A stretch of 63,042 bases of DNA, filler included, from Folioceros fuciformis (Eukaryota): assembly GCA_049999805.1 (NCBI GenBank). It is 6 parts of 6 records of this genome, joined end to end, with 100 filler letters (N's around TTAATTAATTAA, not from the genome) between each part and the next. Parts side by side here need not be neighbours in the genome. Positions count along the whole stretch, not along the records: positions 1 to 10,837 come from JBNGIO010005214.1; 5 more parts are not named here. One strand, written 5' to 3'. The position numbers and the translations under genes are program-made. Shown one piece after another: positions 4,801 through 31,538 of the stretch (positions within the stretch are counted from its first letter, which is position 1; each line of letters starts with the position of its first letter). Under the pieces are notes generated by a model. That model did no database searches and had not been told where the DNA came from. It worked only from the letters and a program-made list of their open reading frames with translations.

Positions 4801-7137
4801 AGGTTTTTGGGTCTCGTGCTTTTGCTTGTATCCCTAGGCCTAAAAGAAAGAAGTTAGATGCCAGATCTAAGCCTCTTATCTTCCTACGTTATTTAGAAGA
4901 GTCGAAAGCCTACAAGTTATATGATCTTACCACACCACGAATTACCTTGTCTCGGAGTGCCACATTTCTCGAATTTACCTCTCCTTGACCAGATTCGTTT
5001 GTAGATCAGTTGTATGCTGCAGATGCTCTTACCTCCTCCCCAGATGAAACTTCCCCTGGTGTGGACATAGATGACTTTGAGCTAGCTATTACTTACCCAG
5101 ATTCAGATGGTGAGGTCACGGTTCCTGATGCTCTGCTGGATGCTAATCCACTTCTACATGGGCCCTTACCAAATCCAGTAGGGGACGCTGCAAGTCAAGA
5201 TGACGACTCCCAGTCACAGCACTCTTCTATTGCTAGTGTTGATCCTCCTCCCAACTTGGCTGAGCCTGACTTGTTTGGTGTTGACGGTTTTGAGGATGAT
5301 TCTGCTGTAGAGGGAGCAGAGGGGGATGACCCTGAAGATGAAGTTCCCCCTCCACCAGATCCTCCTCGTTATCCTCCCAGAGAAAGGTGGTCAAGAGAAA
5401 ACTGAATTGAGCCTCCTTACCAATCAGTGGATTTTTGAAGACATGCAGCAAATGTGTTTGACCTTTATGTTCCTGACGTAAGGCCAGATCCTCAGACCTA
5501 CTCGAAGGCCATCAATGGCCTTGATGGTAAGCACTAGAGGATCTCTATCGATTATGAGTACACCTCACTTATCAAGAACAAGACTTGGGAGTTGGCTAAC
5601 CTGCCTCCTAGAAGAAGGCCAATCACGTGTAAGTGGGTGTTTAAAACAAAGTTGAAGGCAGATGGCACAATTGCGAGGTATAAATCACGTTTGGTTGCAA
5701 GAGGTTTTTCTCATATACCTGGCATTGACTATGGGGACACTTTTTCTCCGGTGGTTAAGCCTCCTTCTGTGCGTATCTTACTAGCCATGGCTGCTGAATT
5801 CGACCTTGAGCTTCACCAAATGGATGTGTGTACGGCCTTCTTACATGGTGAGCTTGAAGAGGTCCTTTACATGGAGCAGCCTAAAGGGTTTGTAGATAAG
5901 CGCTAGCCGAAGAAGGTGTGCAAGCTACTGAAGACCCTCTATGGTCTGAAGCAAAGTCCTCATGCCTGGTACAAATGCATTATGAATTTTTTAAGGAAAA
6001 ATGGCTTTGTGCAATCACATGCTAATAGCAATTTATCCTACCTTGCTTCTGAGGGTCTGTTTGTGATCTTGGCGCTGTATGTGAATGATGCCATCCTGCT
6101 CAGTAGCAACCCTCCTAAGCTTGATGAAGTAAAGGCTCTTCTCCGTTCAAAATTCAAGATGACCGATCAGGGCCCTTTGCGATTCTGCCTCGATATTTAG
6201 ATCTTGCACAATAGAGAACAAGGTACCATTATCCTGCATCAAACTAAATACGTAAAAGAGATCCTGAAGCGTTTCAGCTTGGATGCTGCCAAGTCAGTGT
6301 TGACACATTCTGCAGTAGGGGAGAAGCTTACTCGTGAGCAGTTACCTCTGAATGAAGCTGAGCAGAATGCTCTCAATGGTTCCTTATGCAGAACCTCTTG
6401 GGTGTTTAATTTTCCTGGCCAATTGGACTCGACCTGACATATCATATGTTGTTAGTGTAGTCTCCCAGTTTCTTAAGAATCCTGGCAAGCTCCACTGAGC
6501 AGCTGTAAAATGCATACACAGGTACTTGAAGGGGACCATTACCTTGGGGTTGCATTATACTTCCTTTGGCCAGCATGGCTTCACCTTGTCTGCTTTTACT
6601 GACGCCAACTGGGCATCCGATGTTGACTCCCGGAAGAGTCTCTCAGCATATGTGTTCTTACTTGCAAGTGGTGCTGTGAATTGGTCATACAAGAAGCAAA
6701 CGTCCTTGGCGTTGTCCTCAGTTGAGTATAAGGCCCTGACATACACATGCAAGGCGTTAGAGTGGGAAAGGAAGTTCTTGGATGCAATAAACTTACCTTA
6801 GTTTGGCCCTACTACTCTTTTATGTGATAATATGTCAGCTATAGCACTTGTATCATCACTACATTCGTGATGTGGCTGAAAGGGGCATGGTGCAAGTGCA
6901 ATATGTTAGTACGTATGAGAATACAGCTGATATTTTTACTAAGGGACTCTCAAAGGAGAAACATTACAAGCATCTGGCAGCTATGGGTTTGAGGGTTTTC
7001 ACCATCCCACCACCCAGTGCCCAGCCTACCTGGTTTGGAGTCCCAGGGCAGCAGTCTGCCCTAGCAGTCATTCTTCAATATGCTAGCCTAGGTTAGGACT
7101 GATTTCTTCTTTGCCCTGCACAGTACAAGTCGAGGTA

Positions 7138-7191
7138 TGGCACACTCAGTGGATGAAGCTAAAGTGCAGAATCAAGTCGTGAGTGGTGCCA
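7138..7191 (+). other. Conserved 3'-UTR stem-loop with GGATGAAGC core (copy 1 of 5)
   Basis: TGGCACACTCA / TGAGTGGTGCCA arms enclose GTGGATGAAGCT...AGTCG. Confidence 0.6.
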
Positions 7192-7205
7192 CAAGTCTTA
7201 CCTTT

Positions 7206-7758
7206 CTACACATGGCAATGCCTTGCTGTTGGAGGCCTGTAGACATAGCCAAGGTTCTCTAGTTCTCTTATCATTGCCTTGCACTCTTCAGAAGTTAGTA
7301 TTCAAGATTCCTCTGGGTTCTTAGGCTCATTTGCCGACATTTCCTACAGCTCGCGAGTGCGTGCCCTAGCAGTTGTGAGTAGGTTCTTCAGTTCGTCGCA
7401 CTTCTCCGGAGTCTTGTGCAAATGCCATAGTAGGTCTTTGTCAGCTGCAATCGGTCGTCCTATCTTGTCTACTTCAGAAGCCAATGCAGAGGGAGCTGTG
7501 GCGGCGGCGAGTTTGCTGTGGGGCGTCTTCATCCTGCTGGCGATGCTCTTGCTGACTACTTCTAGCTCCATTGATGCCTCGCCGCTTTCCGTAAGCTACT
7601 GAATTTCCTCCATCTCACGCTCTGCCACTAGCCTCTTCTGATTAGACAGACCACAGCTCCTTGAGCAAAAAATCCACCTTTGAAGCTAGAATCACGAGCA
7701 AGATGACTGCTGTGACTCCTGCCATAGCTGAGTTTGATATTTCAAGGGCGTTTGCCAT
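7206..7758 (-). pseudogene. Decayed antisense accessory ORF of copia family A (N-terminal hydrophobic helix, C-terminal helical domain)
   Basis: Translation MANALEISNSAMAGVTAVILLVILASKVD... (frameshift) ...RPIAADKDLLWHLHKTPEKCDELKNLLTTARARTREL*...ILTSEECKAMIRELENLGYV aligns by eye with ORF 34437-35060. Confidence 0.7.
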
Positions 7759-7870
7759 TACAGGGGCAATCTAAGCATCAGTCACAAGAGGGAGATGTTT
7801 GAGCTGGGCGCTCAAATGCAGCGTGCGCTTTTAAGGCTCTTTGTTTTAACCTCCGCAGGTTAAGAGGGAG

Positions 7871-8050: not shown

Positions 8051-9172
8051 TAGGTTTTTGGGCGATAGCCAATCTCAAGTGAAGACAATCATTGTGCGCA
8101 CCAAGAGATTGTGGGGCCTAAAGATGCTGCAGAAGACTTAGTAGATCAAAATTGCTTGAGGGAGGCTTTAGTGAGTGTGGCTAGGAGGTGCGCAAGGCAC
8201 TGCAAGATTGAAGTTGCCCAGATAATTGCAAACACCGTCAATGGCTGTAGGAAATGGCACCAAACAGCAAGCATTGGGTGAGGAATGCAAGGAGGATTAA
8301 TGTGGTGGAAAAAATCCGGGGACACCCAAGGGCTTTCCTCTAGCGGCCACACCTATCCCGTTGTCGTGTAGTCTAGCAGGTTTTGTTCCCTCGAAGGAGG
8401 GCCTGTCCCAGTTGTGCGTGTGAACGACTCAACTCGTACCTCTCTTCTACCACGATCCTCGCGAGCCTGAATACACCTCCTGCCTGCCAACCACGCCTCT
8501 GCTGCCGGCGACTCACTCCGGTAGGACACCCACGTTCCTCACTCTCTTCCCAGGTTACTTCCTTGTGTCCAGTCCAACACTTCCTCCCTTGCTCTCGTCT
8601 TTTCTTCTCCTCGATCTAATCCTCTTGGACTAGCCTCCCCCTCTCAACTCAACTCCCTCAACTCCTCGACTCCATACCCACCTGACTTCGTTCACGAGGA
8701 GGACCACTGATGCGGTGGTAGCGAAGACCTCCAGTCAGCTCGCGCTGAGTCGAAGACCCGGGCCCTTCTCGACAAACTCACCCAGGTCGGACACCACAAG
8801 TGTGCGTGTGAAACACGGCACCTCACATCCACGCGTCTGGGCCGTCACAATCCCCACCAAGCTACCAGACACTGCAGACAACGCAGCCGGTAGGAGCGCA
8901 CTCGTTGGAACACGAACAAGTGTGCTCAGGCTTGGAGAGAAACAGGGAACGGCCACTTTATCTCTTGAGCCCTATGACTCTTATAGAGTTCCTAGCTACT
9001 GTCGGTTGGGGTGGTTGATCGGGTAGGCAGCCATTGATGGTCTCTCTCACCTGCCACAGTGCTTAAGCGCATTAAACAATGTCTTTAAACGCTTAAACTA
9101 CCCCCTCTACCACGTCTATCCTAACTACCCAACTCTATTGGGGACGCTTCGGTGGTTCGAATGGGCAGGTCA
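8051..9172. repeat. Unclassified repeat, probably the LTR or UTR of another retroelement; it truncates the MET1 fragment
   Basis: No credible ORF; pyrimidine tracts; ends ...GGTCA where MET1 similarity stops. Confidence 0.35.
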
Positions 9173-10837
9173 GAATGGCAATCTTCGCATCCTTTTCCTT
9201 GCTTGTTTCTTCACACGCTAGACACCTACCGTCACCGCGTGCCAACTTTTCAGTTGGGAGGCGAAGAAAACATCCCTTTCCAGCGGAATATAGAGCTCGG
9301 CAGAAAAATTGAACAGGAAGACCACTCTGTTCTCTTTCTTTGGCTAGGGCCGTATCTGCTTCATCGAGCTTGGCATTGTCTTTCCTGTTGGCATGTCCCC
9401 ACGGTCGCTTCCTGATCTCAACAGCGAGGGTTCCTGAGGTGTCCTCTATTTCAACATCCATGCACTCCTGCACCAAAAACAGCTCCCGATCGTCAGCAGC
9501 ATTGCCGAGTACAGTGTTCATGCCCCGTTCCAGAATCCTCCCGTGAATCATGTGCAGACCCTTCGTTGTTTCATACAAGTACTCGACAAGGAGAATGACA
9601 GACTGATCCTGCCCGCTCCCATCTACGAGGACAGCGGCCCCAGCACATATCTCTTCGTCGTTGTAACGAGCTTTCTGGTACAGGAGAAGCTTCGAGCTCG
9701 GCACACTCTCCGGCTCCCCCATCCATGTCAATGGTTTCGAACCTCTGGTTTCTTTTGTCTTCCACCTTTTGGGCACTATGGGCTTCACCTTGATGTCGCT
9801 AGAAGGCTGAAACACCGTATCCTCCTCAGACTCACTACCGTCCTCTTCGTCTACTTCATCGTTCTCCTCCACACACACCTGATCTGCTACCTTCCCGTCC
9901 TCCTCAGTATCAAGTTCCATCAGTTCCAATCTCTTGTAGTAGGAGCTCCAGATCCGATTGACAAGGTCGGTGGTTGTAGCCCGCATGGGTTTCTGCTTCT
10001 TGACATCAGGCCCCAGATAAGCCCTGGGATTCAAGTTTCTCCCCTTTTTGACAATGATGGTCTTCTTCTTGGACACTGACAGCTTGGTGTGATGCCTCTG
10101 TTCCATCTTGCTGGCCAGGCCAGAAATAAATGCACAGTTCTTAATCCTGGGATCAGGAAATTCTTCAAACTGCTGCAAAATGATTTGGCCATGGACGACA
10201 ACATATCTCTCCATGTCCGCGACCTTGGAAGAGATGAAGGTTTTGGCATCTGTCGACTGCTCAGCGAGCTTCTTAATGACATCGAGGAAGAATAAGCGAG
10301 AGACCCTCAACTCTTCCTTCAACATGGTGATGATTTTGATGGTCAACTCAGCAGTCCTCAGTTTAGGACTGTACCAGAGCAAATACTGCTGAGAAGGCTT
10401 TCCGAGCTGGTACCAAGCCCCATCTGTCCGTATGGAAATTGACAGATACTGTGAACCAAACTCGATCACCCATTCTTTCACTGCACTCAAGTAAAGAGGA
10501 ATACCCGATGCAGCTGACTCTGATGCACCAACGTCAAAGTATGAACCGTCATCCTCAGTCATCAGTCCAGACCCAAAAATCTCGACATCTGTTTCGGTAC
10601 CGGCAAGCATGGGGAGAAGCTCCAAGGATATGAGCCAAGAATCAGAGTTGTACAGTGCCCAATCGTGCAGCATGCGACGGGGCAGGTCCTCTGGAAGGAG
10701 CTCAGCTACGTCGTCCTCCAAGATGAGGTACTCATCCACCTCGTCCTACTTTGGTTTATAGTAGGCAGGCAGAGGATAATCAGCTGCAATCTCATCCTCA
10801 TTTATCTTAATATACGGCTTGCTCTTCCTCTTGCTCA
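9173..10837 (-). pseudogene. MET1: DNA (cytosine-5)-methyltransferase 1 fragment: RFTS (DNMT1-RFD) domain, acidic linker and BAH domain; no catalytic domain in window
   Basis: EDEIAADYPLPAYYK, PRRMLHDWALYNSD, LELLPM, IFGSG, YLSAVKEWVIEFG, SIRTDGAWY.LGKPS, YVVVHGQIILQQF, KPMRATTTDLVNRIW, TVLGNAADDRELFL, FFCRALY; in-frame TAG at 10746-10748; runs into the gap at its 5' side. Confidence 0.93.
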
Positions 10838-10937
10838 NNNNNNNNNNNNNNNNNNNNNNNNNNNNNNNNNNNNNNNNNNNNTTAATTAATTAANNNNNNN
10901 NNNNNNNNNNNNNNNNNNNNNNNNNNNNNNNNNNNNN
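10838..10937. other. Artificial contig spacer
   Basis: N44-TTAATTAATTAA-N44 (stops in all six frames). Confidence 0.97.
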
Positions 10938-14208: not shown

Positions 14209-17200
14209 GTAAGGCCATGTTCCTTTTACTGTGTGCCAAAAGCAGGAGGGTAATGACTGACATGTAGATTGTGTTTGTGTGTATCGTAGGACACAAGTAG
14301 ATAGGAAGTGTAGGAAAGTCTGTCAGTTGAGGCTGCAATCTGTAAAACCTAAATTATAAGGGGGTTTTTGAGATCAGAGGACATAGGCTCTCACCCCTCC
14401 CACACACTCCATGTCAGTTGTTACCTTCCAAGTAGGTGGCTGAAGTCTTGAAGTCCAAGCGATTCCATGTGCAATCTGTGCTTCAGCTTAGGCAGCGCTT
14501 TTGTCAAGATATCGGCTGTGTTCTCAGCAGTGGGAACATATGCCAATTGGATAACTCCTCTTGCAACTGTGTCTCTAATATAATGGTGCTTGATCTCGAA
14601 GTGTTTCGTCCTTGCATGAAATCTTGGATTGGCGACCAAGGCAATTGCGGAAATGTTGTCACAGCGGAGGATTGTGGGTTCCAGCTGCTCAACATGAAGA
14701 TCCTTAAGATAAGCACGCTCCCACTCAGCCTCCTTTGCAGAATGAATAAGAGAGATGTATTCTGCTTCAGTGGAAGACAACGCAATTGACTGCTGTTTCT
14801 TGCAAGACCAACTGGTTCACTGCAGCACCAGCTAATAGGAAGCAGTATGTGGAAAGACTCTTCCTAGAGTCAGAGTCTGAAGCCCAATTAGCGTCCGTGT
14901 ATGCAGATAATTGAAGACCTGAAGGTGACCCAACTTGATAGAAGAGTCCAATTGTCATGGAACCCTTGAGATAGCGGTAAATCCGCTTCACAGCTGCCCA
15001 ATGCACACGTCCAGGCTTCCCCATGAATTGAGATACAGCACTAACTAAGTATGAGATGTCTAGCCTGGTCCTATTAGAAATGAAGATTAAGTAGCCTACT
15101 GCATGCCTGTAAGGTACGTTCTCCATATCAGCAATCTCCATAACAGCAATCAGCAGATGTGGCACATTGGTCCACAGTTAACTTGACTCCCACAGAGCCT
15201 GGTGTCGAAACTAGACGTGCTTGATCAAGTTGAAACCTCTTTAGAATCTCAGCCAGGTATTTCTTTTGATGAATCACGATCAGACCTGCGTCTCTGTGAC
15301 GTAGAACCTGAACACCTAGGCAGAATTTTAACTCTCCCACATCCTTCATCTCAAACTTAGTGCTAAGGAGATTTTTAAGGGTGGCTAAGATGGATGTGTC
15401 TGTGCAGGCAAAGATACAATCATCTACATAAATGGCTAAGATGCAAAAGGCTGAACCATCTACAAGGTAGTATATAGAAGAGTTTGCAGCACTTTGAACA
15501 AAACCGAGCTTCTTGAGATGAGTATCCAACCTTTTGTTCCAAAGCATGGTGCTTTGCTTTAAGCCTTAGAGGGCCTTAAGGAGTTTAAGTAACTTGTTGG
15601 GCCATTGCTTGTGAACATAACCTTGTGGCTGCTCCATGTATATCTCCTCTTCAATTTCACCATGTAAAAATGTTGTACAAACGTCCATTTGGTGCAGTTC
15701 TAAGTTGAGCTCAGCAGCAAGAGCAAGGATAATTCTAATACTCTAAGCTCTGACTACAGGAGAAAAAGTCTCCTGGTAGTCAAGGCCAGCAACTTGACTG
15801 AATCCACGAGCACAAAGTCGAGCCTTGTAGCGGGCGATTTCACCATCAGCATTCACCTTTGTTTTAAAAACCCATTTGCAGCTAACTGGTTTCCTCCCTT
15901 CTGGCAAGTCTGTAAGTATCCAAGTATTGTTCTTAATGATGGATTAATATTCCTCCTCTACTGCAGCTTGCTAGTGATGAGCATCAGGTCCAGAATAAGC
16001 TTCATCCATAGAGGCAGGTTCAAGATGGAGAGGAGCACTTCCAGGGATTGCTATATGAGCTGAGGGTTTATGCCGAAAATCAAAAGACTCATAAGGTGGC
16101 TCCTGCTAGTGATCCCAAGGAATTCGGGCTCGCAAAGTATAACGAGGAAGAGGCGCAGCCTCGACAAATAGTAAGGCCTCCTCCTCAGAATCTATAGTAG
16201 TAACTTGGGATTCTTGAAGCGTAGGTAGGTTAGGTTGCAAGTCATTGTCTAATGGTGGGATTGGATATGGAATTGCATCAACATGCTCATCAATAAGATC
16301 AGGAGGGTGATCAAAAGGGTCAGGATGGTCTAGTGGATCTGGAAGTTGCACATAAGGTAGCTGATCGGGTGCAGGATCAGCAGTGCTGGGAAAGGTAGTT
16401 TGAGGAGTGGCAAATATGTCTGTTGTGGATGATTCGTCATTTGATATATCAGAATCAGAAGAAGGGTGAATGCCTGCGTCTTGGGAAACTGAGGTCAACA
16501 GCTCCTTAAAGACAACACTCCTAGCAAGAACAGGGGTAAGAGATGCAGGGTCAATCAGTTTGTATGCCTTGGCTTCATCCCCATAACCTACAAAAATCAA
16601 AGCTCGTGATCTATGATCAAGTTTCTGACGCTTCTTAGGTGGGATGTAGGCGTGTGCAGGAGAACCGAATACCCTGAAGTGCATGATACTGGGCTTACGT
16701 CCCCAAAACATCTCAAAAGGAGTTTTACCTAGAAGGGAAGTTGTGAGAAGGCGGTTGAGGATGTAAGTGGCTGTGGTGAGGGCCTCTACCCAGTACTCTA
16801 TTGGAAGTGAAGCCCAACTAAGCATGCTACGGGTCATGCCCATAAGGGTTTGATTCTTTCTTTCAGCAACCCCATTCTGCTGGGGAGTGTAAGCAACTGT
16901 CAGTTGTTGTAAGACACCATGATCTTGGAGAAAGACATCAAAGGTATTGTTGCAGAACTCTGTTCCATTGTCAGTACGTAAGCATTTGAGAAAACAGCCA
17001 GACTATCTTTGAGCCATGAAGAACCACTCTTTAAAACAGGGAAAGGTCTCACTTTTACGAGACATAGTATACGTCCAGGTAAAACGAATAAAATCATTTG
17101 TTATTGTAAGGTAGTATAAAGCTCCTCCTAAGGATTGTGTTTGCAGTTTACCAGAGATGTCGGCATGCACTAGATCTAACAGCCCTAAAGTTCTGTAGGC

Positions 17201-17614: not shown

Positions 17615-17809
17615 TGTACACAATATAGCAATATATGAAAACAACATCCTTGTAAGAAGAAAAGGAAGTGAATTAAACAAAGTACAACACATGAACACAT
17701 ATATAGTCTTGGCAGTTATAACCGCCTTTGAAGAGTGCCCTAATTCTTTAAAGGGTGCCCTAACTAATACTAGCACAATGTATATTAAATAGGACTTATT
17801 TTTCTAACA
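17615..17809 (-). repeat. 3' LTR of element 4
   Basis: Direct repeat of 23682-23876; adjacent PPT TGAGTGGGAG at 17810-17819 (minus strand). Confidence 0.95.
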
Positions 17810-18617: not shown

Positions 18618-21600
18618 TTAGATACTAGAAGAAACTGTTTGAGTGGAGTCCAAGACTCCAAGAGACTCTCGAAATAGGTAATGTTTCACCCTCCCCAAAG
18701 CTTTGGTTAAAATATCAGCTGGATTGGAATCTGTTGAAATATACTCCAGCTCAATTTGCTTGGTTGCCACTGCATCTCTGATAAAATGATGATGGACTTC
18801 AACATGCTTGGTACGGGCATGAAAGACTGGATTTTGTGCAAGTGTAAGGGCTGACTGGTTATCACAGAAAATCTTAGTGGGTTGTGTCTGCTCTTGTCCC
18901 AAGTCTTTTAGCAACCGACGCAGCCATATTCCCTCCTTAGCTGCTTGTGTGAGAGCAGCATACTCTGCCTCAGTCGATGACAAGGAGACAGTTGGTTGTT
19001 TCTTTGATGACCAGGTCACCACACCACCAGCAAGCATAAAAGCATAAGCCGACACAGACTTGCGCGTGTCGGGATCTGATGCCCAATCAGCATCACAGTA
19101 ACCCACAAGAGTAAGTGGCTGTCCATCAAAAGCTTGTCTTGTGTAATGAATTCCATACTTGCTCGTCCCTTTAAGATATCTCAAAATGCGTTTTGCTGCA
19201 GACCAGTGAACCTGTCCAGGCTCCTTTAAAAACTGTGACGTCATGCTGACTGGAAGGGAAATGTCCGGCCTTGTATGATTGGAACAGAAGATCAACGAAC
19301 CAATAGCTTGTGAATATGGTACGGACTTCATCTCTTCTACCTCAGCAGAAGTTTGAGGAGACTGGTTCTTCAACAATTTGCAGCCAGCCTCCATAGGGGT
19401 CGCAGCAGGCTTTGCATCAAGTAGCTTGTACTTGTACAACATGTCAAATATGTATTTTTCTTGATGAATAATGAGAGTGCCAGTATCTGGAATGCGTAAC
19501 AACTGCGTACCCAAACAGTAAGACAGCTCACCAATATCAACCATATCAAATCTTTCTGACAGCTGCACTTTAACTTTCTGTATACTTGACAGGTCAGTGC
19601 CAAGAAGAATACAATCGTCAACGTAAAGGGCGAGTATAACAAAAGAAGACTTATCACGATAAGTATACACATTAGAATCTGCAGTGGACGTAACAAAGCC
19701 CAAATCAAGTAAGTATTCATCAATACACTGATACCAGGCTCGTGGACTCTGCTTGAGGCCGTAGAGAGTTTTAAGAAGGTGGCAAACCCAATCTAGTTTG
19801 CCAGCAACCTCATGACCTTCAGGCTGTTGCATATAGATGTCTTCCTCTAACTGTCCATGAAGGAACGTCGTTTTAACATCCATCTGGTGGATGATGAGTG
19901 AGAAAAATGCAGATAAAGCAAACAATACACGAAGAGACTGCGCCTTCACAACAGGTGAAAAAGTGTCGTGGTAGTCCAGGCCAGGGACTTGAGAAAAGCC
20001 CCGTGCAACGAGCCGGGCCTTATAGCGTGCAATGGAACCATCAGCCCGATATTTGAGTTTGAAGACCCACTTAGAGGTCACAATCTTCCTCCCCTGAGGG
20101 GGTCTGCAAAGCTCCCAGGTATGATTTGAAACCAAGGAGTCATATTCCGATTTGATAGCAGCTTTCCAGTGAACAGCATCAGGACCTGAAATAGTTTCCT
20201 GATAACTTTGAGGTTCATAGCCAGGATTAACTGTTACTTGAGCAGAATGTGAAGGTAAATCTGTCAAGGAACTCAAAGAAGCGCTGCTGTAAGGAGGTTC
20301 CAGCCACTGATCACGGGAACGATGAACATGTGCAGAACGTCGAGGGCCAGGCTCGGGCGCAGGAGGAGGCAAAACATACTCAACAGGATCATCTCCAGAA
20401 TCCTCAGTAAGATCATCTCCAGACTGCTCAACAGGTTCATCTGCAGACTCCTCAACAGGATCAAAACGTAGAACCTGTGTGCCAGGATCTGCAGCATCAA
20501 TTGTAGGCACAACATCACCATCATCCAGAGGAAGAGGATTCATATCCTGTGGAATGTGTAGGGGAATGGATTCCGCAGAAGGAAAGGAAGCATCATCAGC
20601 TGGAAACTCAACATAATCCATAGTGGACAAGTCAGAAGGATCAGCATCAGGAGGAGAAGCAAGAGGATCAGCCGAAAGATCGGGCGTAGGAGCAACTTCA
20701 GTTGTAGGAGGAGGCTCCATAACCTTACGCTCATCAAACACAACTGTGCGAGCATGAGTAACTTTCCTGGTGAGTGGGTTAAACAACTTATAGCCGTGAA
20801 TGCCAGCAGTATACCCAATAAAAATATGTCTCTTAGACTTGAAGTCAAACTTACGACGAAGTTTATCAGGAATATGAGCATATGCAGGACACCCAAGAAT
20901 GCGAAGATGAGAAACATCAGGCTTCACTCCAGTCCAGGCTTCAAAAGGTGTACAACCTTTCAATGAAGACACAACTGTCCGATTCTGTAAGTAAGTAGCA
21001 GCTTGTACAGCTTCTGCCCAAAATTTCACTGGTAATCTCCCCTGGAAAAGCATAGCTCTAGCTGCATCCTGAATAGTCCGATGACGCCTTTCAGCACGAC
21101 CATTCATATCTGAATGGTATGGAATAGTAACTTGCCTAGTGATTCCACGTGCCTGACAGAACTCTTGAAATGCTGTGGACAGATACTCCTTCCCATTGTC
21201 GGAGCGGATACATTTAAGTTTAAAACCCGTCTGACGTTCAGCATAAGCTAGATAGCGTTTAAAGCTATCAAAAACATCACTCTTAAGCTTCAAAAGCTCA
21301 GTGACTGTAAAATGAGTTCTGTCATCCTCAAATACCACAAAATAACGAGCACCTCCCCAGCTAGGTACTGACATAGGCCCACAGATGTCAGTGTGAAAGA
21401 GATCTAATACCTCTGTGGCCTTCCTAGGTTTACCAGAACCAAAGTGTGATTTAAATTGCTTGCCATGAACACAAGCTACACAAAGTTCTAAGTCAGGTAA
21501 TTCTGCTTCTGTAAATCCTGTCACCATTTTCTCCTTTAATAACCTACGCATGGCTTGAATATTGGGATGACCCAAGCGGCAATGCCACTGAAAAGCTTGT

Positions 21601-22649
21601 ACAGACTTTGAAGACTTTGCTGAAGCTACATGAACTGTAGGACGTGAAGGGGCTGATACAAAATCTAAAAGATAGAGATCATATAGTGGCGTTCCCCTTG
21701 CTACCACACAAGTAGGGGCATCAACTCTGGTAATTGCACACTCTAAACCTTCGAAAGCAATCTTATAAAGGCCTGTTTTCCCAAGTGCCATAGTACTTAC
21801 CAGATTTTTCTTTAAGGCTGGAACATGAAGAGTATTCTCTAACTCCCATGAATTCCCATTTTGCAGGATAACTGATACTGAACCAATCCCTTTAATGGGT
21901 ATATTCGAATTATCTCCTAACACCACTGCATGATGACTAGGAACAGGCTGGTATGTAACAAAAGCCTTGCGTGAAGCACACATATGGTTGGAGGCTCCAC
22001 TATCAAGAAACCACAAATTCTCATCTTTTGAAACAGAGGTAAGACACATTACTAATAGGCCAGGAGTAGAAGTCCTAGCAATATGTGTCTCTGAAGTTTG
22101 TTTTCCCCTGCCAGATTCATCAGCCTTTTTCTTTCTACAGTCTCTGATCCAGTGACCAGGCTTACTGCAATAATTACATACTCCAGGTTTCTTGCCTTGT
22201 TGTGCGTTGTTGGAATTTTGATCAGCATTAGACGTTTGTCCTCTGCCTCTACCAAAATATCCTCGCCCACGTCCTCGAGCTCTGCCGCGGCCTCTACCAC
22301 GACCAGAGAAGAGAGCTACATCACTCTGTTTGTGAGAACTGCTTGAACCACCCTTGTTCATAATCTTCCTGTTGGTCTCTGCTTGCAGGAGAGCACCAAC
22401 CAGCTTCTGAACTGTAAGGGAAGAGGTTGCAGGCTGTGTAGCTGTAGCTGGAGTAATTACTGCTGCTGATTGTTGGCTTACACTCCACTGTTCATAACTA
22501 GGAGGTAAAGAGGCCAACAGCTGAATTGCTGCTTTAGATTCAGAGATAATAGTACCACATGCTGCCAATTTGGCTCTTGCTGCCCTAAATTTGGCTATGT
22601 GACTCTCAACTGAATCAGTCTCCTTCATACGGAGATTCTGAAAATGCAA
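18618..22649 (-). CDS. Copia gag(C-part)-pol polyprotein, 1343 aa, uninterrupted
   Basis: CNYCSKPGHWIRDC knuckle; WFLDSGAS; HHCC; D-D-E (HTDICGP, RSDNG, GRAER); QMDVKTTFL, LYVDD; CDADW, TEAEY, CDNQS, ADILTK. Confidence 0.97.
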   Translation of the reverse strand: MHFQNLRMKETDSVESHIAKFRAARAKLAACGTIISESKAAIQLLASLPPSYEQWSVSQQSAAVITPATATQPATSSLTVQKLVGALLQAETNRKIMNKGGSSSSHKQSDVALFSGRGRGRGRARGRGRGYFGRGRGQTSNADQNSNNAQQGKKPGVCNYCSKPGHWIRDCRKKKADESGRGKQTSETHIARTSTPGLLVMCLTSVSKDENLWFLDSGASNHMCASRKAFVTYQPVPSHHAVVLGDNSNIPIKGIGSVSVILQNGNSWELENTLHVPALKKNLVSTMALGKTGLYKIAFEGLECAITRVDAPTCVVARGTPLYDLYLLDFVSAPSRPTVHVASAKSSKSVQAFQWHCRLGHPNIQAMRRLLKEKMVTGFTEAELPDLELCVACVHGKQFKSHFGSGKPRKATEVLDLFHTDICGPMSVPSWGGARYFVVFEDDRTHFTVTELLKLKSDVFDSFKRYLAYAERQTGFKLKCIRSDNGKEYLSTAFQEFCQARGITRQVTIPYHSDMNGRAERRHRTIQDAARAMLFQGRLPVKFWAEAVQAATYLQNRTVVSSLKGCTPFEAWTGVKPDVSHLRILGCPAYAHIPDKLRRKFDFKSKRHIFIGYTAGIHGYKLFNPLTRKVTHARTVVFDERKVMEPPPTTEVAPTPDLSADPLASPPDADPSDLSTMDYVEFPADDASFPSAESIPLHIPQDMNPLPLDDGDVVPTIDAADPGTQVLRFDPVEESADEPVEQSGDDLTEDSGDDPVEYVLPPPAPEPGPRRSAHVHRSRDQWLEPPYSSASLSSLTDLPSHSAQVTVNPGYEPQSYQETISGPDAVHWKAAIKSEYDSLVSNHTWELCRPPQGRKIVTSKWVFKLKYRADGSIARYKARLVARGFSQVPGLDYHDTFSPVVKAQSLRVLFALSAFFSLIIHQMDVKTTFLHGQLEEDIYMQQPEGHEVAGKLDWVCHLLKTLYGLKQSPRAWYQCIDEYLLDLGFVTSTADSNVYTYRDKSSFVILALYVDDCILLGTDLSSIQKVKVQLSERFDMVDIGELSYCLGTQLLRIPDTGTLIIHQEKYIFDMLYKYKLLDAKPAATPMEAGCKLLKNQSPQTSAEVEEMKSVPYSQAIGSLIFCSNHTRPDISLPVSMTSQFLKEPGQVHWSAAKRILRYLKGTSKYGIHYTRQAFDGQPLTLVGYCDADWASDPDTRKSVSAYAFMLAGGVVTWSSKKQPTVSLSSTEAEYAALTQAAKEGIWLRRLLKDLGQEQTQPTKIFCDNQSALTLAQNPVFHARTKHVEVHHHFIRDAVATKQIELEYISTDSNPADILTKALGRVKHYLFRESLGVLDSTQTVSSSI

Positions 22650-23020
22650 AGTTGCAGCAACATGACGTCCTTGGATTCATATGTTTCAGCAAACGTTGAC
22701 TAGATTTCGCTTGAAAGTCTGGCAAGCTTAATGTGTGGTATCATCTCTGGCGATATAGTTGAAACCAAAATTGCCTTAGCCTTCTTGTCTGACTTATGCC
22801 AAAGGTCATCCTCTTTGTGAGTCCAGTTAACAGGAGTACTGCCTCCAGGTGACATAACACCTGAAGGCTTGCCGGCCACACGCTCTGGATTTGTCCCATC
22901 AACAATATCCATCAATTGTTTATCTTCCAAAATAGTTTTGACTCTAAAACTCCAGTGATCATAATTGGAGGAGGTGAGTCTATCCTTCTCCAACAGTCGA
23001 TCAGACGCATCTGTCGACAT
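22650..23020 (-). pseudogene. N-terminal gag of element 4, separated from the rest by a TGG>TAG stop (22700) and a small frameshift
   Basis: MSTDASDRLLEKDRLTSSNYDHWSFRVKTILEDKQLMDIVDG is a typical copia gag N-terminus. Confidence 0.85.
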
Positions 23021-23668: not shown

Positions 23669-23681
23669 GGCTCTGATACCA
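23669..23681 (-). promoter_or_regulatory. Primer binding site (tRNA-iMet) of element 4
   Basis: TGGTATCAGAGCC directly after the 5' LTR. Confidence 0.95.
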
Positions 23682-23876
23682 TGTACACAATATAGCAATA
23701 TATGAAAACAACATCCTTGCAAGAAGAAAAGGAAGTGAATTAAACAAAGTACAACACATGAACACATATATAGTCTTGGCAGTTATAACCGCCTTTGAAG
23801 AGTGCCCTAATTCTTTAAAGGAGGCCCTAACTAATACTAGCACAATGTATATTAAATAGGACTTATTTTTCTAACA
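23682..23876 (-). repeat. 5' LTR of element 4
   Basis: Direct repeat of 17615-17809. Confidence 0.95.
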
Positions 23877-24559: not shown

Positions 24560-24659
24560 NNNNNNNNNNNNNNNNNNNNNNNNNNNNNNNNNNNNNNNNN
24601 NNNTTAATTAATTAANNNNNNNNNNNNNNNNNNNNNNNNNNNNNNNNNNNNNNNNNNNN
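24560..24659. other. Artificial contig spacer
   Basis: N44-TTAATTAATTAA-N44. Confidence 0.97.
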
Positions 24660-25310
24660 CCCCCGCTGTCTTGTTGTTGCCTGGTTAGGTTTGGCGCTTG
24701 CAGCGGCTACTTGCTTGCCTGCAGCCGGACAGGGCTGCCAGCTGCGTCTCGGACTGGCCGCTTCCTGCCCAGCCAGCCCCTGTCTAGCCCATCCTCAACG
24801 AGCCAGCAGACGTGCTGGCTGGCTAGATTCAGCTACCTTGCCACCACAACCTAGCCTGCCTAGAGCCGCCCTACGGTCACCCGGCTTGTTGAATCTTGCC
24901 TGGGCTTACAGCCACCGATCCATCCGCCCGTCAGGATCCATCCCAGCAACAGGCCGGCCCGCCTACCAGCCAGGATCCTCAGCCCCGGCCACCTGGCCGA
25001 AGGCTAGGACAGGCCTAGGCACCCTACCTCCATGCCTATGCCCAACTGCCTTCCGCATCCCGAGGCCCCAACTCACCCTCACACGCCCAACTTAGGGTTC
25101 CACACACGTGGCGTCCCTCTCCACGGGCACACCCTACCCCGTACTTCACATTTTCCACGGCCACGGGTTAGCTAGACGATTGTTGTCTTTCTAAACTGCA
25201 TCACCACTATCCCCTGATCATCCTATTTAATCTAGCCTTATCTAACATAGTTTCCTACTTACCTCTCCAAGGAATTCTATCAAAACTCCAAAAAAAACAA
25301 ATACCACCCA
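24660..25310. repeat. Second copy of the GC-rich repeat, with its downstream continuation
   Basis: GGATCCTCAGCCCC...GCCTATGCCCAAC...CCCTCACACGCCC.ACTTAGGG...CCCTCTCCACGGGCACAC shared with 13216-13380. Confidence 0.75.
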
Positions 25311-25710
25311 TTTTCTAAGAGGCTTATCTACCATGTGGTCTCCACACATCTTTATGACACAAACCTCTGCAACTCAACTGCTATGTGATAATATGTCTGC
25401 TATAGCCCTTGTGGCTAATCCACGATTCCATGCAAGGACAAAGCACATAGAGCTTTATCACCACTACATTAGGGACGTGGTGGAGAGAGGTGTGGCTAAG
25501 GTGGAGTATGTAAGCACAGATGAAAATACAACAAACCTACTGACTAAAGGGCTTTCTAAGGTCAAGCACTACAGGCATCTTACCTCTATGGGCTTAAGGG
25601 TGTTTGCTATGCCGGTACAAGAGAGTACAGCATAATGTGTGTTCTACTGACAGGAAGTGAATTAAGTGGTTTACTACAGGCCTGACCTTCCTGTCCAGCA
25701 CACAACCCAT

Positions 25711-25763
25711 GAGGATAGCTCAGTGGATGAAGCAACCTGCATATTCAGTCGTGAACTGTTCTC
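25711..25763 (+). other. Conserved 3'-UTR stem-loop with GGATGAAGC core (copy 2)
   Basis: GAGGATAGCTCA / TGAACTGTTCTC arms enclose GTGGATGAAGCA...AGTCG. Confidence 0.6.
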
Positions 25764-25834
25764 TACATCAACGAAAAGCAAAGAAAAGCAAAACTTCACA
25801 GCAGTGACTTACCTCTCTCAGGCAGACAAGGGAC

Positions 25835-26270
25835 TTAGTCATCACTAGCTTCAGGCACACCGCCGACTACTCCAGTATATCCCAGCATGTTCAGTTCCTT
25901 CACAAGATGCTGTATTTCACACTCTAATTGTGGAAACATGGTTGGATCCCGTGGTGGGAACTTGGCGACCAAGTCTCGAAGCTCCAAGACCCGACACTTT
26001 GTGGCCTTGATTGCTTCTTTGACCTCCTCGCACTTCTAAGCAGTCTGAAGCAGACGACACACCAAGTTCCTATCTGACTGTGTAGGCCACTCCACAGGCT
26101 TCTTCGATACTTGAGTCTTGCTAGGCTCAACAGAGTTACTATGCTGCTGTGACGACTCCTTCCTTGGATCCTTCTGACAACTCAAGCCGCAACCCTCTTG
26201 CGTGCCATTTCTTCCTGCACCAGAAGACGGAAGACTGAGAATTCCCTCTGCAGTGTGTGGTTGTTCTTAG
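25835..26270 (-). pseudogene. Decayed antisense accessory ORF of copia family A
   Basis: VEWPTQSDRNLVCRLLQTA*KCEEVKEAIKATKCRVLELRDLVAKFPPRDPTMFPQLECEIQHLVKELNMLGYTGVVG aligns with ORF 34437-35060. Confidence 0.75.
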
Positions 26271-26680
26271 CCCTGGTACCGCGAGAGCAAGGCACCACAA
26301 CCAATCTTCAGCTTGCCCTGAGTCTTCACGTCTATCCTTGTCTGAAGTTGGATCATCCGTCATGCTCCCTGCATGATTTTCACACTTGTGCCACACAACA
26401 ACTTCGCACGACTGCTTCATCATGAGGGGGTGACGGGGTTTATAGCCTGTTAGGGTTTAAGCACTTACTTTAACCTCGTAAGGTTAAGAGGGGGTGTTAA
26501 GGTTATTTAGATAACCATGGGTTAGATTAACCTAACTCGGTTAAACACGTGACTTTTGGGTTTAACAAACTTGACACTATAAAAGCTACAATTTTGTATT
26601 TATTGAATTAAATTCTTTTTGCTGCATTGTCTCAAGTATTCTTTGTCTAAATAATCCTTGAACAAATGCATAAAATAACA

Positions 26681-28510
26681 GTAATTGGTGCCGAATACCT
26701 GGTCATTTTGAGCATGAGTGCAGGAAGAAACACGCAGGGTGGCCTTGCTGCGAGAGACCTGCAGGGGAGTCACACATGGTAGTCAGAGGCCAATCCTGTA
26801 ACTTCCACAACATTAACAAGGCACCAGCAATTCTAGCTATATGTCTAACTTTAACAAAAGTAGATGCAACTATGTGGTTCTTGGATTCAGGAGCTACAAA
26901 CCATATTTGTTATTCAAGAACCAGCTTCCTTACATATAATGATCTTCTGCCTGGATAGTTTGTGCTACTCAGAGACGATAGTGATCTAGCCATAGCTGGT
27001 CACGGGGAAGTTCTTTTACCTTTCAGAGGTGGCAAATCTTTTCGCTTACAGCATGTACTCCACGTCCCAAAATATGAAAAAGAATCCTCTGTTAGTACAG
27101 TGCCTGGTTAGTGATCATAATATCCATGTTAATTTCTTACCAACATGTTGTCTCATCACATCTAAGGATGATTCCAGCCAGGTTGTGGCACAGGGGACAC
27201 TTTATCATGATCTATACAAGTTTGATACCCTACCCCTATCTCAGAGTTTAGTTGTCGATGCACGACCCGAAGTTGACAAAACCTTTCTCTGGCATTGTCA
27301 TTTTTGCCACCCTAGTCTCACATACGTTCGCCATCTAGTACAGAATGAAGCCCTATACAAAGACCTTGTTAGTTTCACAATTAAAGACACCATGTTTTGT
27401 AAGAACTCCCAGCTAGGCAAGCTTGCATGGAAGCCATACAATGACCCTAACCCTACTAAAGCCAAAGGGTTGCTTGACGTTATAAATACTGGTATTTGTG
27501 GACCAATGTCCACCCATTCTTTCAACGGAGCAGTCTACTTCCTTATTCTTTCCCTTCCAGAATACTTGAGTTACGATTTTCAAGCTTTACTTAAATCCAA
27601 AGGCATACTTCATTAACTTACAGGACCTTATCATCCTGCTCAAAACTCCTATGCCGAATGCTATAACCATACTTTACAAGAACGTAGTCGTACTATACTC
27701 TCACTTGCCGATCTGACTCGTGGATATTGGGCCGAAGCTCTTGCTGCTATCAACTATACCCATAACCGACTTCCTATTAAGCCCTTGAATGACTATACTC
27801 CGTTTGAAAGGTGGACTGGAGACAAACCACGTATTAGTCATCTTCGCATCTTTGGCTCAGCTGCGTATGCCTATGTTCCTGCTGGCAGACGAGGTAAGAT
27901 GGATGATAGAGCCACTAGACTTATTTTTGTCGGTTACTCTAAGCAATCCAAAGGTTACAAACTCTTGAACCCCTCTACGAGACATCTTACCTTAGCCCGC
28001 AGTGTTAGCTTCAACAAAAATTCCATCCTTCAAGCCCACATCAAATCCTCTCAAAGTTATACTCCATTGCCACAACCAACAGCCTATGGCCATTTCCCTC
28101 GCAACTCTACCAGCAATGATGACCTCACAGATCCTCTCGTTTCTTACTCGTTAGATATTCCATCGACACTACATGAACCTAAACCCATTGTACACCAAAT
28201 ACATGATCACTCCTATGCTCCTGCTGAAATTGAACACCATGGATACCAACCTAGATTGTTACCAGATCTTCCATACCCTGATGACTCACCCATACCAGCC
28301 ATACTCCCTGAACTTGAGCCAGCAAACCTTCCTTTGCCTCTCTGACGATCTGCCAAGACGCACCGTCCACGTTTGGAATAGCTTGAACCTCCTTATTCAC
28401 TTGGAGATACAATTACATCTACCTCCCAAGAGGCCACTACAACACCTGAATTAGAAGAACAACCACATCCTACCCTTGCCGCTTTCCTCAACTCAGTCGC
28501 TGCCACTCTT
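26681..28510 (+). mobile_element. Ty1/copia element 6 fragment (zinc knuckle, PR, integrase with internal deletion)
   Basis: NWCRIPGHFEHEC, WFLDSGATNHIC, ICGPMS, TPFERWTGDKPRISHLRIFGS, FVGYS. Confidence 0.88.
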
Positions 28511-29399
28511 TTAGATCCACCACATACCCTGGTGCTCTGAGAGGTGGGAATAGGCCGGGGCATTTATACTCAAGACCTCCTTGGGTCTCGAAGTTTTGAG
28601 GTAGGAGCAGGGTTGACCAATAATTGGTCCGTGGACCAAGTCGGGGACGGGGGGGGGGGTGCTACTTGTTCCTTGGCCCTCGGTACTTGAACAAGTTCTA
28701 GGAAGCCTATATAAATACAAAAAATATGCAAATTCTAGATGCCCGGAAAGGAGAGTGGAGAGGATAGCTCGTGTTCATTCAAAACTCTAGAGTTAAATAC
28801 CCTGGCTTGGGATTAAGTTCCGGATGGGAGACTGACCACGATGCCTTATTTTATAGAGAAAATTTTGATATCATTTTCTAAGCCTAGGCACTATTTTTCC
28901 TAGACATTCTAGGACAAAAAACTTTCTTTTGGCTTAGATTTTCCCTATTCTAGATTGATAGGTCTCGACTAGCATCTGTAAGAAAAAAAAAAAATCGTAG
29001 TTCAAATGAAAAAAAGACTATCATGATCTGATACATGATTTCTTTTGCAGTGCCGGAAAAAACTAGTTGAGAAGGTCTATCAGCAAGCAACTAAGGTTCT
29101 CAAAACTCTTGGATATCAGCTTGCGCAACCTTACCAACATGTTTCTAGCCATGATCAGGAGACCAAGTGAGCTAAGGCTCTCATACCATGAGAAAATCCT
29201 AACAGTAAGATTGTGTAGCATGCATCTAACCCATGATGCTACGCAAGATATGCTCTTCGTTAATTAGTGAGATAAGAGGTACACAAGGTGTGTTTTAAGG
29301 TGGTGCAGGGTGTCCGTTCATGAAGAGGCACACCCTTTTGTAGTGACCTAACCCTATTAACGGTAACTAGATTACGGGCAGGGTTACGGGTAGATTAAC

Positions 29400-31538
29400 C
29401 TTTTCATAACAAAGCAAAGTTCATCACATTAGCTAGAAGAAATTTGCTTTCAAATTTTGATCTTTATCAAATAAGATGCATTGAGTGTACAATTATTCAA
29501 TTCATTAATAAAAAGTCTAGAACCTTCTTCCCAAATCCAGACAAATTACAGCAAACACTCAATTCCATCAGATCAAAAGCCATCCAAATTCATTCTTCTA
29601 CTGATGAGAGATTAAATTATCTTACCCAAGAGATACATTCAATCTCTAAAGCTATTGAGAAACTACCTGTTGAAGAAGTTGATACTTCTGACCTTTATGT
29701 CTGGAGCAATATAGATACTTGCGAAAGAACAATAAAGAAATGCAGCACGTGCTCTCGCGTTACGCCCAAAACAATAACGAGGACTTTGCGCCAAGCACGA
29801 TCAAGCTATCTTCATTAAAGTTGAACATCATCTGCAATGTCTGAAGAGCAAGTAATTGACGAGGTTACACACTCAGACGAGGACGCCAAAAAACTTAAAA
29901 AATAGCTTGCTAAAGAAAGAGTTAAGTGGGAAGAAGAGTGGAAAAGAAAGACTTCTGACTCTGTACATGCAACTGTGGTTTATGGAGAAGGCTTCAAGGA
30001 GAAAGATAGATTCAATGGAAAAGGATATGACGTTTGGCAAATACGTGCCAAAGGTGTACTGCGACAACGTGACTTATAGGATATCATTAGCGGTGATATT
30101 GATCGTCCTCTCCAGAATCAGGATCTAAATCAAACTGGGACATCAAGGATCAGAAGGCACAAGATATCATCATAAGTGGACTTACTGAATCAATGGTCCG
30201 ACAAGTCTCAGAAGCAGATACCTCTAAGGAAATGTGGGACCGTCTTGCTCTTATATATGCTTCAAAAGATGTGATGAGCATATTGACGGCCACCCAAAAT
30301 TTCCAGAATCTCAAGATGAAGGAAAATGATTCCATTGAGAGCCATATAAGTGCTTTTAGATTGGCTGAAAATAACCTTGAAGCAGCATCTGGCGAGAAAA
30401 TCTCTGAAAAGAATGCATTCATTAATTTCTTATCCACTCTACCACCTTCCTATCGGGCGTTCATGACAACACAAAATACCATCCTTTGTAATGCACAGAA
30501 GACAATGGCATCTGACGGTTCCTCAACGCTGAATATCACCTTAAATGAGCCCATAGAAGCCATAATACAGGAGGACTCCAGCCGTCATCACGACAATTGC
30601 TCCACCAGACAGCATGTAATGTTCACTGGAAGAGGCAGAGGTAGAGGCCGAGGCCGTGGCCAAGGCAGAGGACCCAATACCTCTCGCCCATATATCAACT
30701 CCTCTCATGGAGACTCTACATTTTCTTCAATGCTTGCAATAGGTAAAAAGAAGATTGGAGTTATTTGTAATTGGTGCAGAATACCGAATCATATGGAATA
30801 GGATTGCAACAAGAAGAATGGCGAGCCTAGAAAGGAGGCCGCACCTAGAGCACATGTTGTTGTGAAGAAACAATCTTCCTCAACACCATCAGCTCTCATT
30901 GTATGCTTGGCATCATTGAAGCCAACAAACCCATATTGGTACTTGACAGTGGAGCTACATCACACATCTGTCACAACAAAAACTCTTTTGAGTCCTATTC
31001 GCCAGTCACAAGACACCAGACTGTCCTACTGGGTGATGACCACAACCTCCCCATCTTTGGTGTAGGTTCAGTCGTTCTTAGATATTCTTCAGGCCAAGTT
31101 CTCTCTCTCTCTCATGTTCTTCATGTACCATCCATGTGTAAAACTTAGTGTCTACATCTAGCTTATGTTCCGAACATAGTATACAGGTCATTTTAAACGC
31201 AGATAATTGTCTTATAGTTATCTTCCAAGTAAGTCCTATACCATCCGCTTAAGCACTTTAAAGGACGGGTTATACAAATTGTCTATCAAAGTGGGTCCCT
31301 TACATGATAGGATATATGTTGCTTCCCAAAATTCTGCAACATCCTCCAACACCATACTTTGGCACTGTCGTTTAGGTCATCCTAACAGCTAAAAACTCAG
31401 TTAGATATCTAAGGGAAACCTCTATAGAAGTCCTTCCCTTTCCATGATAGAACCACTGTCCTATGTGAAGCTTGTGTCATTACCAAAAGACATCAAGCTC
31501 CCTTTCAAAATCGCTCTCCACAGCGGGCTAAAGCAACC
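29400..31538 (+). mobile_element. Ty1/copia element 7 fragment (upstream ORF, gag from ATG 29837, PR, start of integrase)
   Basis: GFKEKDRFNGKGYDVW, FQNLKMKENDSI, CNWCRIPNH, LDSGATSHIC, LWHCRLGHPN; ends at poly(T). Confidence 0.88.
29444..29818 (+). CDS. Extra sense ORF upstream of gag in element 7 (coiled-coil-like), possibly decayed
   Basis: LQQTLNSIRSKAIQI..ERLNYLTQEIHSISKAIEKL; stop 18 nt before gag ATG. Confidence 0.45.
   Translation: MLSNFDLYQIRCIECTIIQFINKKSRTFFPNPDKLQQTLNSIRSKAIQIHSSTDERLNYLTQEIHSISKAIEKLPVEEVDTSDLYVWSNIDTCERTIKKCSTCSRVTPKTITRTLRQARSSYLH

Follow-up and report, generated by a model that had tools for sequence, protein, structure and literature searches.

The window analyzed here, a 63,042-nucleotide (nt) stretch of DNA from Folioceros fuciformis, consists of six contigs joined by five artificial linkers (N runs around TTAATTAATTAA, at 10838-10937, 24560-24659, 39256-39355, 52423-52522 and 57282-57381), across which adjacency is not real. 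Ty1/copia-type retroelements crowd these contigs, and a tblastn search with the pol C-terminus as the query locates 11 pol 3' ends among them. Three diverged copies, here called family A, carry a hairpin of 54-59 nt shortly after pol, always in the sense orientation of the element. The original prediction, made from the sequence alone, had placed this hairpin at 7138-7191(+), 25711-25763(+) and 35034-35092(-), and a fresh reading of the sequence recovers all three sites as described. The corresponding pol 3' ends lie at 6845-7096(+) in copy 1 (stop codon 7094-7096), 25246-25635(+) in copy 2 and 35208-35744(-) in copy 3. Measured from the pol stops (7096, 25635 and 35208), the hairpin begins 41, 75 and 115 nt downstream, within the 40-120 nt that had been proposed.

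The copies differ in their outer stems but are held together by an invariant core. In copy 1, an outer stem of 11 base pairs with one bulged G encloses the invariant TCAGTGGATGAAGC...GTCGTGA. Copy 2 has a 12-position outer stem with two G.U pairs and one C.A mismatch, and its interior is 2 nt shorter than the interiors of copies 1 and 3, while copy 3 combines a 14-position outer stem, mismatched at two positions, with the inner helix GGAUG:CAUCU. When the three copies are aligned, invariant runs of 14 (TCAGTGGATGAAGC) and seven (GTCGTGA) positions surround a variable interior of 29-31 nt, and the sequence flanking the hairpins otherwise barely aligns, just as had been noted for the untranslated region. 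The exact 14-mer occurs at 7146(+), 25720(+) and 35081-35068(-). If up to two mismatches are allowed, TCAGTGGATGAAGC has five matches in the window against 0.71 expected, a count that none of 100 shuffles reached; the two further, inexact matches (15999- and 41712+) fall in the coding sequence of other elements and lack the stems. By comparison, the best-conserved 162 nt of the adjoining upstream pol show 64-68% pairwise identity, with 83 of 164 columns invariant and a longest invariant run of six. The conservation of the hairpin core is thus far above that of the neighboring pol coding sequence.

The core had been noted in the three copies of family A, but it is not confined to them, since it follows five of the window's 11 pol 3' ends. 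The 9-mer GGATGAAGC occurs seven times against 0.64 expected, which lifts it above the background frequency against which it was to be checked, and five of these occurrences lie 28-127 nt past five pol 3' ends, always in the sense orientation. The two post-pol cores thereby added are at 50895(+) and 55190-55182(-), 28-105 nt after pol. The other two occurrences, 15999-16007(-) and 16572-16580(-), are situated within the pol of another copia element; the one at 15999 reads in frame as ...SMDEA..., a motif with which the reverse transcriptase region usually begins. One frame of the hairpin cores likewise gives ...SVDEA..., a likeness to the pol SMDEA that is probably coincidental.

A covariance model built from the three family-A copies only, in which copy 1 scores 64.2 bits as a training sequence, was used to search the whole window with filters off, and it finds the copy of the 50.9-kb element independently (19.4 bits, E=0.0026). 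This distant hairpin (50884-50933(+)) pairs its outer arms CAGACAGUGG/CCACUUGCUG at 8 of 10 positions, forms the inner helix GGAUG:CAUCC and bears the core GGATGAAGC at 50895. The 55.2-kb element carries a probable fifth copy at 55156-55197(-), with the outer pairing UCUGGC/GCCGGA, the inner helix GGAUG:UAUCU and the core at 55190-55182. We call it probable because its model score is weak and its folding z-score is near zero; its membership is suggested by the 9-mer, by a core position 28 nt downstream of the pol stop and by a polypurine tract common to the core-bearing elements.

That tract, GGTTAAGRGGG, matches the window at exactly five places where 0.04 would be expected, and these belong to the same five core-bearing elements and to no others: 7858-7868(+) in copy 1, where it reads GGTTAAGAGGG and adjoins the start of the 3' long terminal repeat (LTR), 26482-26492(+) in copy 2, 34251-34261(-) in copy 3, 51117-51127(+) in the 50.9-kb element and 55027-55037(-) in the 55.2-kb element. 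In all five it is followed by an LTR start of GTGTT or TGTGTT, whereas four of the six remaining elements have a AGTGGGAG-type tract instead. Because core and tract occur in the same five elements, hairpin and tract together mark one lineage. Within this lineage the region between pol and the tract takes two forms. In family A it spans 760-950 nt and holds a convergent (antisense) open reading frame (ORF). In the 50.9- and 55.2-kb elements, where the tract lies 326 and 181 nt past the pol stop, it has no antisense ORF, and the two spacers can be aligned only at the hairpin core and the tract, as one would expect of a signal in the sense RNA for replication or expression. No analogous hairpin was seen at the two of six core-less pol ends that were folded (18654- and 14409-; z = +1.00 and +0.33), the other four being scanned for motifs only, and no LTR pair was found within the window for any of the five core-bearing elements.

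The core contains an AUG, within GGAUGAAGC, that is invariant in all five copies, and it could in principle start a short peptide (MKL...). In copies 1 and 3 the invariant UGA closes a frame of nine codons, and in the 50.9-kb element a frame of 83 codons (50897-51145(+)) runs from this AUG through the polypurine tract into the LTR and has a hydrophobic end. We nonetheless give such a mini-ORF almost no credence: the frame of copy 2 is shifted by 2 nt, that of the 55.2-kb copy ends after seven codons, the two distant spacers are unalignable, the invariance extends to codon-degenerate bases, and coding would leave the co-varying stems unexplained. The 83-codon frame itself is not conserved in the 55.2-kb element, and a conserved sense ORF from the core AUG is ruled out, given that the two distant spacers cannot be aligned and one of the frames has stops.

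The outer-stem sequences of the three family-A copies differ from one another, yet they still pair. Their 14-nt flanks outfold 98.1%, 95.8% and 95.6% of 5000 random pairs of window flanks at the same spacing (p = 0.019, 0.042 and 0.044), which gives a product of about 3e-5 for the three copies. RNAalifold predicts 18 pairs for these copies, six of them with compensatory changes, despite a one-base register shift that stems from the bulged G of copy 1. It also recovers the inner pairing of the GGAUG segment with its downstream partner, in agreement with the proposal that GGAU(G) pairs with AUC, AUUC or CAUCU, and the recurrence of this pairing as GGAUG:CAUCC and GGAUG:UAUCU in the two distant elements points the same way. 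Figures from a four-row alignment of the sequences with significant model scores are indicative only, because the alignment was fitted to the structure and has just four sequences, but in it 82.9% of the cells are paired against 67.0 +/- 3.6 in shuffled versions, both sides have changed in 9 of 18 pairs against 3.8 +/- 1.4 (none of 500 shuffles reached either value), 9 of the 11 outer pairs in the basal helix change on both sides, and sliding the partners by one to three columns as a control leaves at best 52% paired. The z-scores of sense folding are modest (-2.00, -1.34 and -0.99 for copies 1, 2 and 3), and the case is built on covariation and conservation because the folding energies alone are unremarkable. 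Together with the flank pairing, the shuffles and the comparison with pol, these results uphold the central claim of a conserved, co-varying stem-loop downstream of pol.

The resulting anatomy is that of a sequence-variable basal helix, a bulge of 1-2 nt on the 5' side, an inner helix formed by the invariant GGAUG, an apical region that begins with AAGC(U), and 5-6 unpaired nt on the 3' side. An AGCU palindrome in the loop had been put forward as a means of dimerization. AGCU, a stretch of only 4 nt, is indeed present in four of the five copies, but in copy 2 the sequence is AGCA, and the consensus fold predicts pairing of the G and C with a downstream GC or GU, which weakens the case for a kissing loop. 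In copy 2 alone, the 5' arm and core (GAGGATAGCTCAGTGG..., 25711-25733(+)) resemble a tRNA gene in its 5' end and A-box. Neither ARAGORN nor the Rfam tRNA model matches this arm, and copies 1 and 3 have no such resemblance; over the whole window ARAGORN predicts no tRNA gene, and the Rfam tRNA model is not among the matches at E up to 10.

The hairpin matches no known RNA family, as had been supposed. Rfam 15 gives no matches in the whole window at gathering thresholds, and when the three sites are searched at E up to 10, only the Giardia U4 model overlaps a hairpin, at 14.2 bits against a threshold of 100. Other recognizable RNA signals were considered and rejected. A box C/D motif or kink-turn is contradicted by GGAUGA and GUGA, which depart from the consensus boxes, by a bulge that would be 6 nt and by the lack of any C/D model match on the hairpin. 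For a selenocysteine insertion sequence (SECIS), AUGA and UGA are present, but the bases after AUGA do not pair with those before GA in the manner of the SECIS consensus. A target site for miR165/166, a candidate raised by GGAUGAAGC, fails on inspection, the bases opposite the microRNA seed being apparently mismatched. The hammerhead and other small ribozymes were likewise set aside, with no model found at E up to 10, the consensus core boxes absent on reading, and two stacked helices in place of a junction. This bears on a further explanation, in which the hairpin would be an RNA-processing signal or a small self-cleaving ribozyme that forms the 3' ends of convergent transcripts. The small size, the conserved internal nucleotides set in variable helices and the location between convergent genes would all suit such a role. 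We consider it very improbable, however, in light of the missing ribozyme matches and hammerhead boxes, the simple two-helix layout with no sign of a junction or pseudoknot, and the absence of GTCGTGA from the two distant copies.

In copy 3 the antisense gene of family A is an open frame that spans 34383-35060(+) and, unspliced, enters the hairpin. Remnants are found in copy 2 (25856-26122(-); 39% identity to copy 3 over 89 amino acids, E=2e-16; one in-frame stop) and in copy 1 (7242-7460(-); 38% identity over 73 amino acids, E=4e-9; two in-frame stops). The protein, conserved among the three copies, belongs to no Pfam family, and it has no match in a word-indexed search confined to near lengths or among 1.84 billion representative proteins. 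A hydrophobic, membrane-anchor-like stretch can be read by eye near the N-terminus of the frames in copies 1 and 3.

Spliceosomal-type boundaries, /GTAAG and CAG/G (the slash marks the junction), bracket the hairpin on the antisense strand in all three family-A copies. The sequence signals delimit a putative intron of 86 nt at 7116-7201(-) in copy 1 (AGAAAG/GTAAGA...TGTGCAG/GG), of which the hairpin fills 54 nt, one of 122 nt at 25691-25812(-) in copy 2 (AGAGAG/GTAAGT...TGGACAG/GA) and one of 107 nt at 34998-35104(+) in copy 3 (AGTCTG/GTAAGC...TGTGCAG/GA). The donor-like /GTAAG stands 5-44 nt beyond the hairpin; finding the sense CTTACC within 60 nt has p = 0.019 per site, or 6.5e-6 when cubed. 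The acceptor-like CAG/G is 12-22 nt before the hairpin, inside a conserved sense block CC[TA]GCACA, whose occurrence within 40 nt has p=0.0035 per site for a pattern chosen post hoc. Read from the sequence, the predicted spliced frame of copy 3 runs on for about 35 codons to a stop beside the pol stop, and the antisense frames of copies 1 and 2 end 7 and 25 nt short of the donor. The family-A hairpin therefore appears to sit inside a putative intron of the antisense gene rather than at the 3' end of that gene. Sequencing run X3, RNA only by guess, has no contigs over 25634-26120 or 34887-35373 and so has no bearing on expression, and the DNA runs reveal nothing specific to the hairpins.

Such an intron raises the possibility that the hairpin is primarily an element of the antisense transcript, in which the stem would zip up the intron of 86-122 nt and the invariant ...CAUCCACUGA would supply or mask the branch point, so that splicing is promoted or gated. 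The bracketing of the hairpin by GTAAG and CAG/G motifs in three of three copies is improbable by chance, the A of the invariant CUGA is 23-30 nt upstream of the putative acceptor, which is a usual distance for a branch point, and TCAGT and GTCGTGA are invariant only in the three elements that have the antisense gene. The outer helix, too, is equally paired on both strands. Against this, the 9-mer core and the inner helix are also found in two elements that lack the antisense gene, 4 of the 23 inner-helix pairs are lost in the antisense RNA, base pairing (UGA with UCA) would occupy the candidate branch point, and AG is lost at the aligned acceptor position in copy 2. Moreover, in copies 1 and 2 the intron would fall in the 3' untranslated region, because the antisense frame has ended by then, 7 and 25 nt ahead of the donor. 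On balance we regard this explanation as unlikely, though it is the main rival to the one that we favor.

Splicing of the sense transcript offers another account, with the purine-rich GGAUGAAGC acting as an exonic enhancer after a sense 3' splice site whose use would remove pol and yield a subgenomic gag mRNA. A pyrimidine-rich tract (12 of 15 positions) with a CAG is found 28-34 nt upstream of the core in three of the five copies (7100-7122(+), 25676-25696(+) and 55222-55242(-)), against a background of 4.1%, and Drosophila copia, which makes a subgenomic gag mRNA by removing pol, is a precedent; it has an intron of about 3 kb (PMC5580714). The other two copies are unremarkable, however, with 9 and 6 pyrimidines of 15, and the pyrimidine-rich tract of the 55.2-kb element belongs to the coding sequence of pol. 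The plant copia elements studied to date splice around the protease region instead (PMC5580714), and an enhancer would have no need of a co-varying basal helix. We accordingly rate sense splicing as quite improbable.

The account that we favor, tentatively and at somewhat below an even chance, is that the hairpin is an old cis-acting, protein-recognized signal of the sense genomic RNA that was later enclosed by the antisense intron. Hairpin and tract are the sole conserved pieces of the spacer both with and without the antisense gene, and an old signal in the sense RNA is for this reason the most economical explanation. Where retroelements have conserved structures after the last ORF and ahead of the 3' LTR, these usually serve in the post-transcriptional handling of RNA. 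The hairpin would accordingly be a structured element that belongs to the full-length sense transcript and is specific to one Ty1/copia lineage, its basal helix displaying the invariant nucleotides of the internal loop and inner helix as a recognition site for a protein, which could be the Gag or reverse transcriptase of the element itself or a host factor. The bound protein might then mark unspliced genomic RNA for export and stability or for packaging. On this account the hairpin would predate the antisense gene, which in family A would have been inserted between the hairpin and the polypurine tract and whose short 3' intron would now enclose the hairpin, so that the constrained sequence is removed from the antisense mRNA.

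As regards the strand, variation in the inner helix consists wholly of changes from G-C to G.U, and 23 of its 28 cells are paired in the sense RNA against 19 of 28 in the antisense, where four G.U pairs become C.A; the G.U pairs thus mildly favor the sense RNA. Copies 2 and 3 and the 55.2-kb copy fold better as sense. Several observations nevertheless weigh against a sense-strand signal or against the breadth of its distribution. In the outer helix, 35 of 42 cells pair on either strand, and the overall strand bias is small, with 58 of 70 cells paired in the sense and 54 of 70 in the antisense. For copy 1 the antisense fold (-20.8 kcal/mol, z -4.17) is better than the sense fold (-19.1, z -2.00), and the 50.9-kb copy likewise has the lower minimum free energy as antisense, so minimum free energies do not decide the strand. 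The 55.2-kb copy scores only 10.4 bits with the model (E=1.4), three unrelated matches rank between it and the 50.9-kb copy, and the folding z-scores of both distant copies are near zero and non-significant. The sample is of five copies, all decayed and all in one 63-kb window, and no relatives came to light in the metagenome, prokaryote-genome and viral-contig collections. Finally, the invariance of TCAGT and GTCGTGA is limited to elements with the antisense gene and its splice-like motifs (three of three elements against none of two), a co-occurrence that would fit a role on the antisense strand equally well.

The sense-signal and antisense-intron explanations are not mutually exclusive. They could be combined in a two-strand device, with the hairpin serving as a protein-recognition signal in the sense RNA and as a branch-point mask in the antisense RNA that gates expression of the orphan protein, but we think this combination distinctly unlikely.

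If the hairpin is a sense-RNA signal, it has parallels among other retroelements. The constitutive transport element (CTE) of simian type-D retroviruses and the RNA transport element (RTE) of the intracisternal A-particle are export or stability elements located between the last ORF and the 3' LTR. The hairpin likewise lies past the last sense ORF but before the 3' LTR, and it resembles them in having conserved unpaired nucleotides held by co-varying, sequence-variable helices, with presumed recognition by a protein on unspliced genomic RNA. It differs in showing no similarity of sequence or structure to either (the Rfam search being negative), in being much smaller and in having a host of the plant lineage. 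To our knowledge, no element of the CTE or RTE kind and no corresponding export adaptor has been described from plants.

Another parallel is the 3' half of the bipartite primer-binding site of Ty3, which is likewise short, conserved and cis-acting and lies in the 3' untranslated portion of the RNA of an LTR retrotransposon (PMC5371799). The Ty3 site is in the U3 region, is defined by its complementarity to the initiator tRNA and needs a host RNA as its partner (PMC5371799), whereas the present hairpin precedes the polypurine tract and folds on itself. This parallel underlies one more explanation, that the hairpin helps reverse transcription by contacting the primer tRNA or the 5' end of the genomic RNA and thereby aids initiation or strand transfer. 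That the sequence stays invariant in diverged elements suggests a host partner that is itself invariant. Elements in the window use an initiator-tRNA-type binding site (three exact matches), and Ty3 offers a precedent, the initiator tRNA there using its T and D arms to pair with the 3' region (PMC5371799). The hairpin is nevertheless 143-760 nt upstream of the polypurine tract, in contrast to the U3 location in Ty3. Its complementarity to two 5' regions is not exceptional, being equaled by about 31-33% and about 69% (0.685) of shuffles, and the core appears to resemble parts of the initiator tRNA rather than to complement them. We judge a role in reverse transcription to be as improbable as one in sense splicing. 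The exact initiator-tRNA-type primer-binding sites of the two elements in the window that retain both LTRs are at 23670-23681(-) and 42769-42780(+).

Stem-loops in the 3' untranslated regions of long and short interspersed nuclear elements (LINEs and SINEs) are reminiscent of the present hairpin in being conserved near the 3' end of a retroelement RNA and in being thought to be recognized by a protein, the reverse transcriptase (PMC5135761). The mechanism cannot be the same, as non-LTR elements prime on their 3' end and LTR elements do not. The antisense gene, for its part, recalls the convergent, lineage-conserved ORFs between pol and the 3' LTR of the plant Ty3/gypsy elements Grande, RIRE2 and Retand, which have spacers of 3-6.5 kb and mostly a TRP28 domain (PMC11963269). 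In distinction to these gypsy elements, those described here are of the copia type, with a spacer of 760-950 nt, an orphan protein and a putative intron that holds the hairpin.

Searches beyond the window with the 21 invariant bases, allowing a gap of 10-25 nt, return three metagenome, five prokaryote-genome and no viral-contig matches, which is about the number expected by chance. All eight have zero or one flanking pair and serve as a negative control for the stems; the three from metagenomes lie in apparent coding sequence, and one match reaches 21.5 bits with the model only through carrying the invariant bases. The polypurine-tract pattern has 24 matches in prokaryote contigs, where no hairpin accompanies it at E up to 1, and none in viral contigs, where the pol C-terminus and the antisense protein also have no related loci. 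A search of the literature, supplements lying outside its scope, for antisense ORFs, introns and stem-loops of copia elements and for the 9-mer found no description of the present hairpin element. We conclude that the hairpin is a new RNA family of a familiar kind for which Rfam has no model.

The surroundings of the hairpins include a single clear host gene, a DNMT1/MET1-type DNA methyltransferase fragment with RFD and BAH domains at 9135-10745(-), whose nearest protein-atlas clusters are mostly streptophyte. Two copia elements of other lineages retain their LTR pairs, at 17615-17809 and 23682-23876 (98% identical) and at 42619-42769 and 48279-48429 (95%). The first has an intact ORF of 1352 amino acids (18618-22676(-)) and antisense frames of its own after pol, and the second (42619-48429) appears to be inserted in the element that bears the 50.9-kb hairpin. 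In the DNA runs, the summed contig depth over 33426-34399 is extreme, about 36,900 and 7,200 in two neighboring bins against tens to hundreds elsewhere; this peak indicates a repeat of very high copy number and overlaps copy 3 on its 3' LTR side as well as the end of a further element. In run X4, over 24660-39256, C>T (649) and G>A (758) strongly exceed other changes, a pattern like that of a bisulfite library.

Copia elements make up large parts of plant genomes, and while cis-acting RNA structures have been well mapped in retroviruses and in yeast Ty elements, they have hardly been mapped in plant copia elements. The hairpin and the polypurine tract together provide a handle on the post-transcriptional needs of the genomic RNA of such an element and on the annotation of its lineage. 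The hairpin also lets one ask how an intron-bearing antisense gene survives reverse transcription around a constrained sense signal. Should the two-strand device prove real, it would couple the sense and antisense output of a plant copia element in what would amount to a retrovirus-like accessory circuit.

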